The position numbers and the translations under genes were made by a program. 40,069 nucleotides of DNA, taken from the IMG/VR virus record IMGVR_UViG_2526164633_000045, positions 1 to 40,069 of that record; one strand, given 5' to 3'. Positions 21,817-39,796 of the stretch are shown here, piece after piece. The stretch comes from a virus (Duplodnaviria; Heunggongvirae; Uroviricota; Caudoviricetes). Each line of letters begins with the position of its first letter. The stretch's first letter is position 1. The notes under the pieces were generated by a model, which did no database searches, was not told the origin of the DNA, and saw nothing but the letters and a program-made list of their open reading frames with translations.

Positions 21817-21892
21817 TGGTGCTGGTTAACGGACTTGAACCGCTACCCATTCGCTTACAAGGCGACTGCTCTACCATTGGAGCTAAACCAGC
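21817..21892 (-). tRNA. Candidate tRNA, anticodon TGT (Thr) by manual folding
   Basis: Minus-strand 76-nt sequence GCTGGTTTAGCTCCAATGGTAGAGCAGTCGCCTTGTAAGCGAATGGGTAGCGGTTCAAGTCCGTTAACCAGCACCA: perfect 7-bp acceptor stem, D-arm GCTC/GAGC with GG, T-arm AGCGG-TTCAAGT-CCGTT, anticodon loop CTTGTAA (one G-A mismatch at the base of the anticodon stem), encoded CCA. Confidence 0.65.
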
Positions 21893-21897
21893 ATATT

Positions 21898-21972
21898 TGG
21901 CGGGACAGCGTGGACTCGAACCACGATAAGAAGGTTAACAGCCTTCCGTAATGACCTTTATACGACTGACCC
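21898..21972 (-). tRNA. Candidate tRNA, anticodon GTT (Asn) by manual folding; some non-canonical pairs
   Basis: Minus-strand ~75 nt GGGTCAGTCGTATAAAGGTCATTACGGAAGGCTGTTAACCTTCTTATCGTGGTTCGAGTCCACGCTGTCCCGCCA: perfect anticodon stem GAAGG/CCTTC with loop CTGTTAA, perfect T-arm CGTGG-TTCGAGT-CCACG, acceptor stem with one U-U mismatch, weak D-stem. Could be a degenerate or pseudo tRNA. Confidence 0.5.
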
Positions 21973-29719: not shown

Positions 29720-29914
29720 CTATTTGTTTTTCTTGTTGCTTGGGAAAGGACGAACTTCCTCTCCAATCACACTGCCATCAGGCTTTACCGTAACCATGAT
29801 GTTACGGCCTGCCAGAATGGCCTTGCTGATAGCGCACTGGATTACACCAAAGTCACTGGCTGCTTTAGCCTGTCCATGGATTTTGGCGTAATCGGCAAGT
29901 GTCATTCGAATCAT
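29720..29914 (-). CDS. cro: Cro repressor
   Basis: [62 protein letters not shown] parallels lambda Cro; start taken at the ATG with GGAGAG RBS (track ORF starts at an upstream GTG). Confidence 0.9.
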
Positions 29915-29944
29915 ATGCACTCTCCGTTATTAACCATGAACAAA

Positions 29945-30009
29945 GAATACTACAGGTATTCAAAGCAATCAATACTCAGGGTATTTTTAGTTTAAGTACC
30001 TTAGCTATT
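29945..30009. promoter_or_regulatory. OR operator cluster (three AATACnnnnnGTATT-type sites) with divergent pR/pRM
   Basis: GAATACtacagGTATTC (~29945-29961), AATACtcaggGTATT (~29971-29985), AGTACcttagCTATT (~29995-30009); centre spacing ~24-25 bp. Candidate pR on minus strand TTGATT-17-TATTCT overlapping sites 1 and 2; candidate weak pRM TAGAAT -10 just upstream of the cI ATG. Confidence 0.7.
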
Positions 30010-30020
30010 AGAATTAAGCT

Positions 30021-30737
30021 ATGGAAAATAAAAAATCACTGACGACAGAACAGCTCGAAGACGCTAAGCGGCTTAAGGCTTTGTATGAGTCAAAAAAGAA
30101 AGAATTGGGAATAACCCAATACTCAATCGCTGATGAACTGGGTATCACCCAAGGAGCGGTAGGGCATTATCTTAATGGCAGAAACGCGCTAAACGTTGAG
30201 GTCGCATCTGGTTTTGCACGTTTGTTGCAAGTCTCAATTGCTGATTTTAGCCAGTCAATTGCTGCCAAGGTTGCAGAACAGGCAGAAAGCCTTAAGAGCG
30301 ATGCCAACGTAAGGTATGCAGGGGAATACAGAGCAGGAAAGAGGTATCCGGTGTTAAGCAGTATCCAGGCTGGCTCGTGGTGTGAAGCATGCGAACCATA
30401 CACCATTAAAGACATAGATGTTTGGCTTGAGTCTGACGCGCATATTCAAGGTAATGCGTTCTGGCTTAAAGTGGAAGGTGATTCAATGACGGCACCGGTT
30501 GGGTTAAGCATTCCAGAGGGAACATTCGTTCTTTTCGATACCGGAAGGGAGGCGATCAACGGCAGCTTGGTCATAGCAAAACTTTCTGACTCTAACGAAG
30601 CAACATTCAAGAAGCTGATAATCGACGGCGGAAATAAATACCTCAAGGGACTTAATCCTGCATGGCCTCTCGTGCCAATCAATGGAAACTGCAAGATTAT
30701 AGGCGTTGCAATTGAGACAAAACTAAGGCTGGTTTGA
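30021..30737 (+). CDS. cI: CI repressor (LexA-like S24 autopeptidase family)
   Basis: 238 aa; N-terminal HTH (...LGITQYSIADELGITQGAVGHYLNG...), Ala-Gly cleavage site, Ser/Lys C-terminal domain (...EGDSMTAP...TFKKLI...); colinear with lambda CI; no RBS, consistent with a leaderless pRM transcript. Confidence 0.93.
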   Translation: MENKKSLTTEQLEDAKRLKALYESKKKELGITQYSIADELGITQGAVGHYLNGRNALNVEVASGFARLLQVSIADFSQSIAAKVAEQAESLKSDANVRYAGEYRAGKRYPVLSSIQAGSWCEACEPYTIKDIDVWLESDAHIQGNAFWLKVEGDSMTAPVGLSIPEGTFVLFDTGREAINGSLVIAKLSDSNEATFKKLIIDGGNKYLKGLNPAWPLVPINGNCKIIGVAIETKLRLV

Positions 30738-30754
30738 TCACGCAAGGGGCGATT

Positions 30755-31123
30755 ATGGTTGGAACCGCTATAGCAAGCTTTTTTGGGATGTTGGCAATCT
30801 CGACAATTTACGGCTTAGCGCATGCTTTTATTGCGAAATCTCTATCAGAAAAAATAAGCCAGGCTTGGGCGCATAGATCAGCTCGTTTCATGATTCTGGT
30901 GATCATAGCAATACAAGGGATATCTGCATTTATCCTCTATGGATCAAGCTTATACCTATTGTATCAAGGCGCGACATTTACGCCTTACACCAGTGATTAC
31001 GGAACTCTATACGATGGTAGTGAAGACATCACTGTGGCTTGGATCGTCTTTGGTTTATCTATGGCCGTGTCTGTTGTAGCAGACATCATTAAGGTAATTC
31101 TCGTCTTAACCTTCGCTGACTAA
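30755..31123 (+). CDS. Small inner-membrane protein co-transcribed with cI (rex-position accessory gene)
   Basis: 122 aa from ATG 30755 (AAGGGG RBS); ~4 predicted TM segments (MVGTAIASFFGMLAISTIYGLAHAFIA..., FMILVIIAIQGISAFILYGSSLYLL..., VAWIVFGLSMAVSVVADIIKVILVL); no similarity to RexA/RexB noticed. Confidence 0.6.
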   Translation: MVGTAIASFFGMLAISTIYGLAHAFIAKSLSEKISQAWAHRSARFMILVIIAIQGISAFILYGSSLYLLYQGATFTPYTSDYGTLYDGSEDITVAWIVFGLSMAVSVVADIIKVILVLTFAD

Positions 31124-31209
31124 CCTATAATCCCGGCAGCAATAGCTATCGGGATCCACTTCACATATCCCGCATAAAAAGCACTGAACAAGCAGACACC
31201 GAAAAAATA

Positions 31210-31296
31210 AATATCCTTTGTATTCATTTGCTTATCATTATTTCACCAAAAATAAATACCTTGGGTATTTACACAATAAAATACCTACAGTATTCT
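31210..31296. promoter_or_regulatory. OL operator cluster and candidate pL promoter
   Basis: AATATcctttGTATT (~31210-31224), AATACcttggGTATT (~31255-31269), AATACctacaGTATT (~31280-31294); plus-strand TTTACA-17-TATTCT overlaps the last site and points toward N. Confidence 0.65.
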
Positions 31297-31342
31297 TTAG
31301 CCATCAGCAGGGCGCTGGAAGCCAAACGGAACAGATTGGCAG

Positions 31343-31490: not shown

Positions 31491-31763
31491 ATGACAGTAG
31501 TCATTACATATCTGGCTGACGATAACGCCAGAAATCGCCGCAGAGCACGCAGACAGGCTCAACGTGAACAGGCAATGCAAGAGCAGCGACTGGCACGAAA
31601 AATTGCGCTAAAGCTCTCTGGTTGCGTCAGAGCAGATAAAGCAGCATCACTCGGAAGCCTTTGCTGCAAGGAAGAAGATGAACGCAGTGGAAGTATTTGC
31701 CTGCCAAACGTAGCCATTTACGCGGCAGGATACCGGAAATCAAAACAACTGACAGCGAGGTAA
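31491..31763 (+). CDS. N: Antitermination protein N (P22 gp24-like)
   Basis: 90 aa; N-terminal arginine-rich motif (NARNRRRARRQAQREQ) and C-terminus ...LPNVAIYAAGYRKSKQLTAR closely resembling P22 gp24. Confidence 0.85.
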   Translation: MTVVITYLADDNARNRRRARRQAQREQAMQEQRLARKIALKLSGCVRADKAASLGSLCCKEEDERSGSICLPNVAIYAAGYRKSKQLTAR

Positions 31764-31766
31764 GTG

Positions 31767-31991
31767 ATGAATCAGACATACATTCCATCATGCTTGAGAA
31801 ATCTGCCAAAGCAGAAAGCAAAGCCCCGCAAGCAAGCCATAAAGGACGCTAAGGCAGAGGTTATTGATCAAGCAATACAATTGCTCAGGGAGGAGTTAAG
31901 AAGTGGCAAGCTCGAAGGAATGATGATGCCCTATCAGCGCGGATATCTATCGGCGATTAGTAAGTTGGAAGTATTGAAGAGTGAATTATGA
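31767..31991 (+). CDS. Hypothetical early protein (74 aa)
   Basis: ATG at 31767 with GAGG upstream; the track ORF begins at the preceding GTG. Confidence 0.5.
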   Translation: MNQTYIPSCLRNLPKQKAKPRKQAIKDAKAEVIDQAIQLLREELRSGKLEGMMMPYQRGYLSAISKLEVLKSEL

Positions 31992-32123: not shown

Positions 32124-32324
32124 ATGACTACGACTATTGATAAAAATCAATGGTGTGGACAATTCAAGCGATGCAATGGATGCAAGCTGCAATCGGAATG
32201 CATGGTTAAGCCTGAAGAAATGTTTCCTGTAATGGAAGATGGGAAATATGTCGATAAATGGGCAATACGAACGACGGCAATGATTGCCAGAGAACTTGGT
32301 AAACTGAACAACAAGGCTGCCTGA
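32124..32324 (+). CDS. ral: Ral-like restriction alleviation protein
   Basis: 66 aa, MTTTIDKNQWCGQFKRCNGCKLQSECMVKPEEMFPVMEDGKYVDKWAIRTTAMIARELGK...; matches my recollection of lambda Ral in size and sequence; stop codon sits in the loop of the downstream terminator. Confidence 0.75.
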   Translation: MTTTIDKNQWCGQFKRCNGCKLQSECMVKPEEMFPVMEDGKYVDKWAIRTTAMIARELGKLNNKAA

Positions 32325-32389: not shown

Positions 32390-32860
32390 ATGACAAAATC
32401 ATGGAGCGTACCTTTTCCTGAATCAGAAACTGAACATGATGGAATGCCTGTTTTCTGGAGATTCCAAGCGACAGTTGAAGAAGATGGAATCAAAATATTC
32501 GCACTTCAATATATAGCTTTTCATCAGACAGATCATTATGCATGGTTGGTTCCTGCGCATTGGATTGTTAATTTTAAACCAGCACCAAATCAGTGGTTAC
32601 AGGAATGGAAACAAAGGAGAAATAGATATGCAATTAAGAAAGTAGCAAAAAATGCCGAAAGATCTTTTGCATTCCCGACGAAGAAACTTGCCATTGAAAG
32701 TTTATTGCGCCGGAAGAAGTACCATTTAATGAGAATCAAACAAGATTTGGCTGTTGTATCAACTCTTGTTGATGGGATGAAGAATATTGATACATCAATA
32801 CCAGATATTGAATATAACTTTGGACACAACCAAGAAACAGAAAATTGGGTGTTTTATTAG
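32390..32860 (+). CDS. Hypothetical soluble protein (156 aa), AT-rich moron at the sieB position
   Basis: ATG with GAGG upstream; visibly AT-rich coding sequence; bounded by intrinsic terminators on both sides; no recognisable family motifs. Confidence 0.6.
   Translation: MTKSWSVPFPESETEHDGMPVFWRFQATVEEDGIKIFALQYIAFHQTDHYAWLVPAHWIVNFKPAPNQWLQEWKQRRNRYAIKKVAKNAERSFAFPTKKLAIESLLRRKKYHLMRIKQDLAVVSTLVDGMKNIDTSIPDIEYNFGHNQETENWVFY

Positions 32861-37188: not shown

Positions 37189-39796
<2,608 letters not shown>

Follow-up and report, generated by a model that had tools for sequence, protein, structure and literature searches.

HkaS, a predicted membrane protein encoded behind the HK620-type cI repressor, is a candidate phage exclusion factor

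Introduction

What does the single gene that lies between the cI repressor and the N antiterminator of an HK620-type prophage do for its lysogen? In lambda, this slot holds rexA and rexB. In HK106, whose cI is 99.2% identical to that of lambda, the slot is yet occupied by hicA, hicB and one further ORF. Huey carries there a 134-aa ORF with an N-terminal hydrophobic stretch and no Pfam match; ENT1, whose cI C-terminal domain is 85% identical to that of the prophage studied here, carries two unrelated ORFs, and nothing is annotated at this place in mEp213. The slot is thus a variable accessory cargo site. The same slot of the Salmonella prophage BTP1 contains bstA, an abortive infection gene, and the interval between cI and N has been termed a hotspot of mosaic diversity (PMC8585504). 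According to these slot contents and to the BstA paper, the premise from which we started, namely that lysogen-expressed defence genes such as bstA and rexAB reside at this site, holds, and the field is already aware of it (PMC8585504).

The DNA analysed here, hereafter the window, is a stretch of 40,069 nucleotides (IMG/VR record IMGVR_UViG_2526164633_000045). It corresponds to a P22-like prophage. Its virion genes share about 96% identity with their counterparts in CUS-3, Kapi1 and Sf101. An earlier note on this DNA had pointed to an unrecognised membrane protein with four transmembrane segments in the rex position, co-transcribed with cI, and had proposed it as a new determinant of abortive infection or superinfection exclusion. 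We examined the locus, its relatives and the encoded protein, and we weighed this proposal against other possible roles.

Results

An immunity region with a single gene in the rex position

The coordinates of the features are collected in Table 1. The reading frame proposed for the slot was verified from its ATG to its TAA, and so were its ribosome binding site and its position relative to cI: the TGA stop codon of cI occupies 30735-30737 and the ATG starts 18 nt later, leaving a gap of 17 nt. The upstream gene encodes a cI-type repressor, with a DNA-binding HTH_3 domain (Pfam, E = 8e-10) and an autocleavage Peptidase_S24 domain (E = 5e-24); it belongs to PHROG 4 (transcriptional repressor) and is 99% identical to the cI protein of HK620.

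Table 1. Features of the immunity region of the window and predicted segments of the HkaS protein
Feature	Position	Strand	Basis or remark
cro	29720-29920	-	divergent to cI
OR cluster	29946..29985	.	exact AATAC-N5-GTATT at 29946-29960 and 29971-29985
cI repressor (238 aa), first gene of the immunity operon	30021..30737	+	Pfam, PHROG 4, identity to HK620
hkaS Shine-Dalgarno AAGGGG	30744..30749	+	sequence; 5 nt 5' of ATG
hkaS	30755..31123	+	122 codons, ATG 30755 to TAA 31121-31123
RNA hairpin	31130..31155	+	RNA fold; 7 nt 3' of hkaS stop
OL cluster and pL	31210..31296	+	motif search, promoter scan, HK620 annotation
N antiterminator, first gene of the pL operon, on the far side of the slot	31491..31763	+	N_peptide, E = 5e-15; PHROG 271
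HkaS predicted TM1	residues ~2-27		
HkaS cytoplasmic loop	residues 28-44		predicted; basic, amphipathic helix 31-38
HkaS predicted TM2	residues ~45-73		
HkaS periplasmic loop	residues 74-93		predicted; acidic, short beta-hairpin
HkaS predicted TM3	residues ~94-121		

The operators were searched with the AATAC-N5-GTATT motif, one mismatch being allowed. Five sites were found in the 40-kb window (29946, 29971, 31210, 31255 and 31280), all of them flanking the pair formed by cI and the slot gene, for a chance expectation of about 1.06; at least five sites were obtained in 0 of 100 shuffled sequences. The OR cluster lies between cro and cI, and a third operator, OR3, can be placed at about 29994-30010 by transfer of the HK620 annotation at 99% identity. 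On the other side, the operator-like sites of OL span 31210-31224 (with one mismatch), 31255-31269 and 31280-31294, and the promoter scan identified a pL-like promoter at 31268-31296, with a -35 box TTTACA (31268-31273) separated by 17 nt from a -10 box TATTCT (31291-31296). This OL/pL cluster is kept in the divergent loci described below. Operators and neighbours are those of a lambdoid immunity region; the slot gene is therefore located inside this region, upstream of OL/pL and at the place of rexA and rexB in lambda, as the earlier note had it.

We then considered how the gene, named hkaS for reasons given in the next section, may be expressed. The promoter and terminator scans detected no promoter-like or terminator-like site in the 17-nt gap behind cI, and a hairpin is found only after the hkaS stop codon, which argues for the co-transcription of both genes from pRM that had been supposed. 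The hairpin consists of an outer stem of 7 bp and an inner stem of 3 bp, with no U-tract, and RNA folding of the 31100-31300 segment gave a z-score of -3.5. Hairpins of differing sequence also occur about 10-25 nt past the hkaS stop in three divergent loci (L003, L007 and L009), and the segments made of the stop codon plus 75 nt fold at -15 to -19.5 kcal/mol in the window and in these three loci. The terminator scan returned no canonical intrinsic terminator after hkaS, and a canonical U-tract is absent from every divergent locus. The hairpin likely constitutes the 3' end, or a stabiliser, of a cI-hkaS transcript; in the HK620 record, tIMM is placed slightly farther downstream. We count hkaS among the accessory genes that occupy the cI-N slot and are expressed in lysogens, and we infer that it is itself so expressed.

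Other candidate elements of the region were also considered. A small RNA, svsR, has been reported at the 3' end of cI in another prophage (PMC12803456). The Rfam scan of the window returned two tRNAs only, with no small RNA in the immunity region and no evident counterpart of svsR. A hydrophobic minus-strand ORF of 35 aa (31120-31227) was examined as a possible small toxin or partner and set aside, since the divergent loci do not keep it and no family matched it. A TTG start at 30734, which would extend the protein to 129 aa, was rejected because the ATG and its Shine-Dalgarno sequence are conserved and the divergent homologues all start with M-[VI]-G.

The slot gene is hkaS of coliphage HK620

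The protein encoded in the window is the HkaS protein of coliphage HK620 (AAK28867): the two are 99.2% identical and of equal length, and their genes occupy corresponding sites between cI and OL. It is also a member of PHROG 6534, a group of unknown function (E = 2.4e-79, residues 1-122 aligned on profile positions 1-122). The gene that had been called unrecognised was already described in 2001; it is annotated as "unknown" in the HK620 record, and the E. coli copies appear in RefSeq (WP_000233126) as a "hypothetical protein". Thus, hkaS has been catalogued since 2001 without assigned function, and a full-text search of the literature, with the original HK620 paper outside its scope, found no functional study, phenotype, expression or localisation data for it.

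The whole 2.1-kb block comprising cro, cI, hkaS and N is 98.9% identical to HK620 and 100% identical to phi296 and phi367. Window and HK620 differ in their virion genes, those of the window resembling CUS-3, Kapi1 and Sf101 instead, and show no substantial difference in hkaS itself. The gene is further present in HK630, HK140, mEpX2, HZ41, HF4s, 611R6 and two Stx2c phages. Its carriers include P22-like podoviruses, lambda-like siphoviruses and Stx-type podoviruses.

hkaS is constrained and diverges faster than cI

Homologues of hkaS down to 52% identity have exactly 122 codons preceded by an AAGGA-type Shine-Dalgarno sequence; AAGGA, the equivalent of the site of the window, is retained in all the divergent loci (intergenic regions of L003, L007 and L009). 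The dN/dS ratio was calculated between the window and L009, the sole pair with unsaturated synonymous sites, and amounted to 0.135 for hkaS and 0.029 for cI. Their dS values were close to each other (0.69 for hkaS, 0.76 for cI), indicating a shared history. Judged by these ratios, hkaS is under purifying selection and changes about four times faster than cI. Protein identities to the window are 86-95% for cI, 79-92% for Cro, 52-83% for HkaS and 18-36% for N. Among the 146 E. coli copies of each gene, identity to the window is at least 99% for 141 copies of cI and 66 of hkaS. The hkaS frame is intact in each of the best 80 viral contigs of IMG/VR that encode it (80/80 loci). In a few of the copies in databases, the N-terminal part is frameshifted, and one of these prophages has a broken cI gene as well.

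HkaS is predicted to span the membrane three times

Kyte-Doolittle analysis revealed three hydrophobic stretches in every homologue, at residues ~1-28, 40-73 and 89-122, instead of the four transmembrane segments counted earlier. The AlphaFold2 model of HkaS (pLDDT 92, pTM 0.79) and that of a 52%-identical homologue, P0012 (pLDDT 83), have the same layout, with three long helices (2-29, 41-73 and 89-121), a short helix at 31-38 and a beta-hairpin at ~78-86. The loop between the first two predicted transmembrane helices contains four K/R and one acidic residue, whereas the loop between the last two contains four D/E and no K/R. Following the positive-inside rule, these charges place the N-terminus outside and the C-terminus inside, with the first loop in the cytoplasm and the second in the periplasm. 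[quoted passage not shown]

Several positions are invariant among the homologues. Among them, Q54 lies in helix 2, and D110 and K113 lie in helix 3; the cytoplasmic loop further carries an invariant LS-KI-Q-W-H--ARF motif, and the protein ends with eight unvarying residues, ILVLTFAD, which form a hydrophobic tail. When only five divergent sequences are compared, as was done here segment by segment, the proportion of invariant positions is lowest in the periplasmic loop (20%) and highest in the cytoplasmic loop (53%) and in helix 3 (45%). Such a loop, and the faster evolution noted above, are usual for small membrane proteins too.

HkaS forms a small family found in prophage immunity regions

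A word-indexed search of 5.8 billion proteins retrieved 12 HkaS clusters, with identical architecture in all of them. An exhaustive HMM profile search of 1.84 billion representatives returned two proteins, both of the HkaS family: one represents a cluster at full length, the other is a fragment of 44 residues. The family thus comprises two 50%-identity clusters among these 1.84 billion proteins. No above-threshold match was found in Pfam, for the HkaS of the window or for other family members, or in NCBIfam for the HkaS of the window; the matches below threshold were hydrophobic ones only, such as Cation_ATPase_C (17.6 bits for a cut-off of 27.3). The PHROGs gave no meaningful E-value beyond 6534, PADLOC-DB 2.0 gave no match at E <= 10 for the HkaS of the window or for any of 7 family members, a profile search of the PDB sequences gave 0 matches, and the fold searches returned generic helix bundles only. 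Neither profile nor structure searches brought out a clear housekeeping homologue, and no homology to regulators, protease modulators or host envelope proteins was found.

Exclusion proteins were compared directly. The HkaS family profile aligned to lambda RexB with an hhalign probability of 0.7%, and no Pfam RexB match was obtained at E <= 1. For P22 SieA the hhalign probability was 0.3%, two other SieA sequence types being covered through the PHROG scan only. In Pfam and the PHROGs, with E <= 1 as the limit, no holin, SieB or other lysis or exclusion family matched. The absence of resemblance to RexB, SieB and other named exclusion proteins that had been noticed by eye is thus borne out by these comparisons.

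hkaS is strictly associated with one type of cI

Every hkaS homologue with a readable neighbourhood adjoins a cI gene of the same type (238-240 aa) directly on its 5' side, in Salmonella Mbandaka, in a Hafnia-type variant found on metagenome contigs and on other metagenome contigs; at one locus cI is called at 210 aa. N follows on the 3' side in the readable loci, the short contig L011 ending before any downstream gene. In the window and in the divergent loci read, no second gene is present between hkaS and OL. The flanking replication and recombination genes vary from one hkaS locus to another.

The same association holds at larger scale. In all the loci with upstream sequence among the best 80 of IMG/VR (79/79), an intact HK620-type cI lies directly in front of hkaS, at a distance of 17-19 nt, which extends to related prophages the slot occupancy seen in the window. 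In these best 80 loci, a block of at least 90% nucleotide identity runs from ~29255 (cII) to ~31700 (N), with 5-45% sharing outside. A count over 5426 complete E. coli genomes placed each of cI and hkaS in 146 genomes and at 147 sites, all chromosomal. The linkage persists through saturated synonymous divergence in the Salmonella, Hafnia and metagenome lineages. Every context found for the HkaS family is a prophage immunity region, a restriction to phages that speaks against a housekeeping role or a function taken over from the host.

Discussion

The position of hkaS is what suggests an exclusion or abortive-infection function, and a phage-blocking role is plausible from its sequence context. 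We ranked four readings of the data, in the order membrane exclusion, a role in the life cycle or in host physiology, abortive infection, and no function, and we reserved part of the probability for functions outside these four. Our best explanation, which we put forward tentatively, is that HkaS could be a lysogen-expressed inner-membrane exclusion protein that acts alone, in the manner of SieA or Imm. According to this model, the immunity operon (pRM/pRE) of HK620-type lambdoid prophages would begin with cI and end with its second gene, hkaS. The latter would be transcribed together with cI, and HkaS would be made continuously throughout lysogeny. The protein would sit in the cytoplasmic membrane as a 122-aa three-helix protein and would by itself protect the lysogen from incoming phages. 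The step blocked would most probably be the delivery of the genome across the inner membrane, and the outcome would be superinfection exclusion as with P22 SieA or T4 Imm, not a triggered suicide.

Several features favour exclusion at the membrane: a slot given to variable accessory genes, presumed expression from the repressor operon, a small predicted membrane protein with no partner gene, a family confined to immunity regions and fast evolution. The absence of a RexA-like sensor beside hkaS makes a self-contained membrane function likelier than a sensor-gated channel, and the periplasmic loop, being the least conserved segment, fits a surface that faces changing phage parts. A block of genome entry at the inner membrane is the commonest role among characterised lone-acting prophage proteins of similar shape, and T4 Imm is another such genome-entry blocker. 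In the case of SieA, escape mutations map to ejection proteins. HkaS and SieA are both small proteins of P22-like phages, with three predicted transmembrane helices, and HkaS would, like SieA, be expressed from the prophage; SieA works without a phage-encoded partner, and hkaS has no partner gene. P22 SieA (162-164 aa, three predicted transmembrane domains, inner membrane) is alone sufficient for blocking DNA delivery (PMC10883804). However, the two proteins have no sequence relationship, SieA is about 40 residues longer, and sieA has its own promoter beside the ejection-protein genes whereas hkaS lies in the cI operon; the function of SieA is demonstrated, that of HkaS proposed. As the carriers of hkaS span P22-like, lambda-like and Stx-type phages, no obvious class of target emerges.

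It seems quite possible that HkaS represents a new single-gene family of membrane-embedded anti-phage proteins, expressed from the repressor operon and unrelated to the exclusion and defence proteins described so far, with members in prophages of Salmonella and Hafnia as well; the novelty would then concern the function and not the gene. If HkaS excludes phages, it would constitute a small defence consisting of one protein whose fold is unexplored, and a third mechanistic class for the cI-N slot besides RexAB and BstA. About 2.7% of the complete E. coli genomes (approximately 1 in 37), including STEC and ETEC, would harbour it, as would Stx-type phages, and it would be relevant to the host range of phages used in therapy and to competition among prophages. 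If it has no exclusion role, hkaS would be another conserved phage ORF without assigned function. The strict one-to-one tie with a single type of repressor is out of the ordinary for cargo of this slot, and its study could reveal a coupling between immunity and exclusion. In a bolder version of our proposal, the unbroken linkage would reflect precisely such a coupling.

The fact that hkaS never parted from its cI, though defence cargo usually turns over, would fit equally well a role tied to immunity. HkaS may then serve the life cycle of the prophage, in the establishment, maintenance or induction of lysogeny, or the lysogenic conversion of host envelope physiology, a reading that we consider rather unlikely. 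One example of a route would be an action on membrane proteases or stability factors, as described for RexB on ClpP substrates. This reading stays alive because the association with the HK620-type cI is unbroken, from the identical counts in E. coli and the constant 17-19 nt spacing in IMG/VR to the lineages in which synonymous sites are saturated; by contrast, the lambda-type cI exchanged its cargo while its protein sequence stayed 99.2% identical, as seen in HK106. Moreover, conservation of the HkaS protein is highest in the loop on the cytoplasmic side and in the invariant tail at the C-terminus, which suggests a conserved intracellular partner, and by analogy with lambda hkaS would also be made from pRE when lysogeny is established. 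However, tight physical linkage within the non-recombining block from OR to OL accounts for co-inheritance without any coupling. Other immunity groups manage without such a gene, the slot of mEp213 being empty, and the searches brought no homology to the regulators, protease modulators or envelope proteins through which HkaS might act.

A more doubtful reading is that HkaS is an abortive-infection effector, a latent membrane permeabiliser of the RexB or holin kind, and that infection would trigger depolarisation or lysis before progeny are made. RexB, a protein with four helices, excludes T4 rII and other phages with a loss of membrane potential. HkaS shares with RexB its slot and its operon position, both being small polytopic inner-membrane proteins, by prediction for HkaS, encoded downstream of cI and upstream of OL/pL and presumably expressed from pRM in the lysogen. 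Yet the sequences are unrelated, RexB has 144 aa whereas HkaS has 122 aa with three predicted helices, and rexB has rexA as a partner whereas hkaS has neither a RexA-like sensor nor any second gene beside it. Class I holins such as lambda S105 span the membrane three times in an N-out/C-in orientation, and this predicted topology is the only likeness of HkaS to them; the invariant polar or charged residues Q54, D110 and K113, being intrahelical, could line an oligomeric pore. However, HkaS has no match to the holin families, its gene is part of the immunity operon and not of a lysis cassette, and the protein ends with the hydrophobic ILVLTFAD instead of the charged C-terminal tail typical of holins. 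An ungated pore-former made constitutively would also be costly, and yet the gene is intact in all of the best 80 IMG/VR loci. That the slot can carry abortive-infection genes is shown by bstA, a single lysogen-expressed defence gene of the P22-like prophage BTP1 that, like hkaS, immediately follows the repressor gene (PMC8585504). BstA localises to phage DNA replication sites (PMC8585504), whereas HkaS is a small predicted integral membrane protein and has no PADLOC match.

The view that hkaS is a chance or decaying frame in the spacer between cI and OL has very little left to commend it: the window holds spurious ORFs of similar length elsewhere, and the frameshifted copies mentioned above, one of them beside a broken cI, could be taken as signs of decay, but this reading is effectively refuted by conservation, with a low dN/dS ratio, a length of 122 codons and a Shine-Dalgarno sequence kept despite saturated synonymous sites, an intact frame throughout the best 80 IMG/VR loci, and confident, concordant AlphaFold2 models for two homologues that are 52% identical.

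Linkage of hkaS to the repressor gene

The HK620-type cI and hkaS (window 30021-31123 for the two), the latter encoding the predicted three-helix membrane protein HkaS, are paired one-to-one in E. coli genomes, each being present at 147 places in 146 genomes. This unusually stable link contrasts with the lambda-type cI, whose cargo is exchanged in HK106: there the repressor is 99.2% identical, yet rexAB has been swapped for hicAB and one ORF. Some database copies of hkaS (P0006, P0007 and P0009) carry a frameshift and have their first helix replaced. In E. coli ET151 (1768-2868), the cI gene beside a frameshifted hkaS is itself frameshifted, which indicates that in defective prophages the immunity module decays as a unit and that hkaS is not lost selectively. 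The last eight residues of HkaS, ILVLTFAD (115-122; window 31097-31120), and the third-helix residues D110 and K113 are invariant in homologues down to 52% overall identity. Such invariance despite overall divergence suggests that a contact in the cytoplasm or within the membrane has been conserved.

Different cargo was found between cI and OL/N in other phages. The repressor of Enterobacter phage ENT1 is 85% identical to the window cI in its C-terminal domain, whereas its N-terminal domain is unrelated (27%), which points to recombination within cI. It is accompanied by a CxxC-rich ORF of 127 aa and by a 109-aa coiled-coil ORF with a hydrophobic C-terminal tail and a weak XhlA-like match. The slot gene of phage Huey, which overlaps the repressor stop, encodes a protein opening with a hydrophobic, signal-like stretch; no Pfam match was obtained, though the record calls it PagP-like, and this ORF is a further uncharacterised cargo.

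Features of the prophage and of related loci (window positions unless a phage is named)
Feature	Position	Strand	Basis or context
O-acetyltransferase-like ORF	284-1066	+	PHROG 3333, profile positions 111-366 of 372
Tailspike-sized ORF	1107-3092	-	size; adjoins O-acetyltransferase-like ORF
tRNA-Thr (tgt) and tRNA-Asn (gtt), phage-borne	21817-21972	-	late-regulatory/lysis region
35-aa ORF MNTKDIYFFGVCLFSAFYAGYVKWIPIAIAAGIIG	31120-31227	-	reading frame
Operator-like site AATATCCTTTGTATT	31210-31224	.	motif match, one mismatch
pL-operon ORF directly after N	31764-31991	+	PHROG 5305, no assigned function
ral	32124-32324		between the two pL-operon ORFs
Second pL-operon ORF after N	32390-32860	+	PHROG 1636, no assigned function
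IS21-family pair	37399-39200	-	early-left arm; transposase and ATPase
istB/DnaC-like ATPase	37399-38181	-	IS21-family pair
istA-like transposase	38178-39200	-	IS21-family pair
ENT1 repressor and slot ORFs	L017 1941-3386		sequence comparison
Huey slot gene, 134 aa	L015 2609-3013		record annotation

Sequences downstream of hkaS

The operator-like site, separated by 45 bp from the next operator, is conserved in every divergent locus. In the HK620 record these bases are annotated as the terminator tIMM, with OL3 located at what corresponds to 31232-31248; both published assignments may therefore need revision. The strongly hydrophobic 35-aa ORF converges on hkaS, the stop codons of the two overlapping, and contains the predicted post-hkaS hairpin. 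The ORF lacks a good Shine-Dalgarno sequence and matches no family, and since its frame is not kept in the divergent loci compared (L003, L007 and L009), it is probably a chance ORF.

Other features of the prophage

Neither of the two pL-operon ORFs matches Pfam. The O-acetyltransferase-like ORF is probably an O-antigen-modifying conversion gene; because its profile is covered only from position 111, it may be truncated at the N terminus or its start wrongly called. The prophage may be disrupted at the IS21-family pair.
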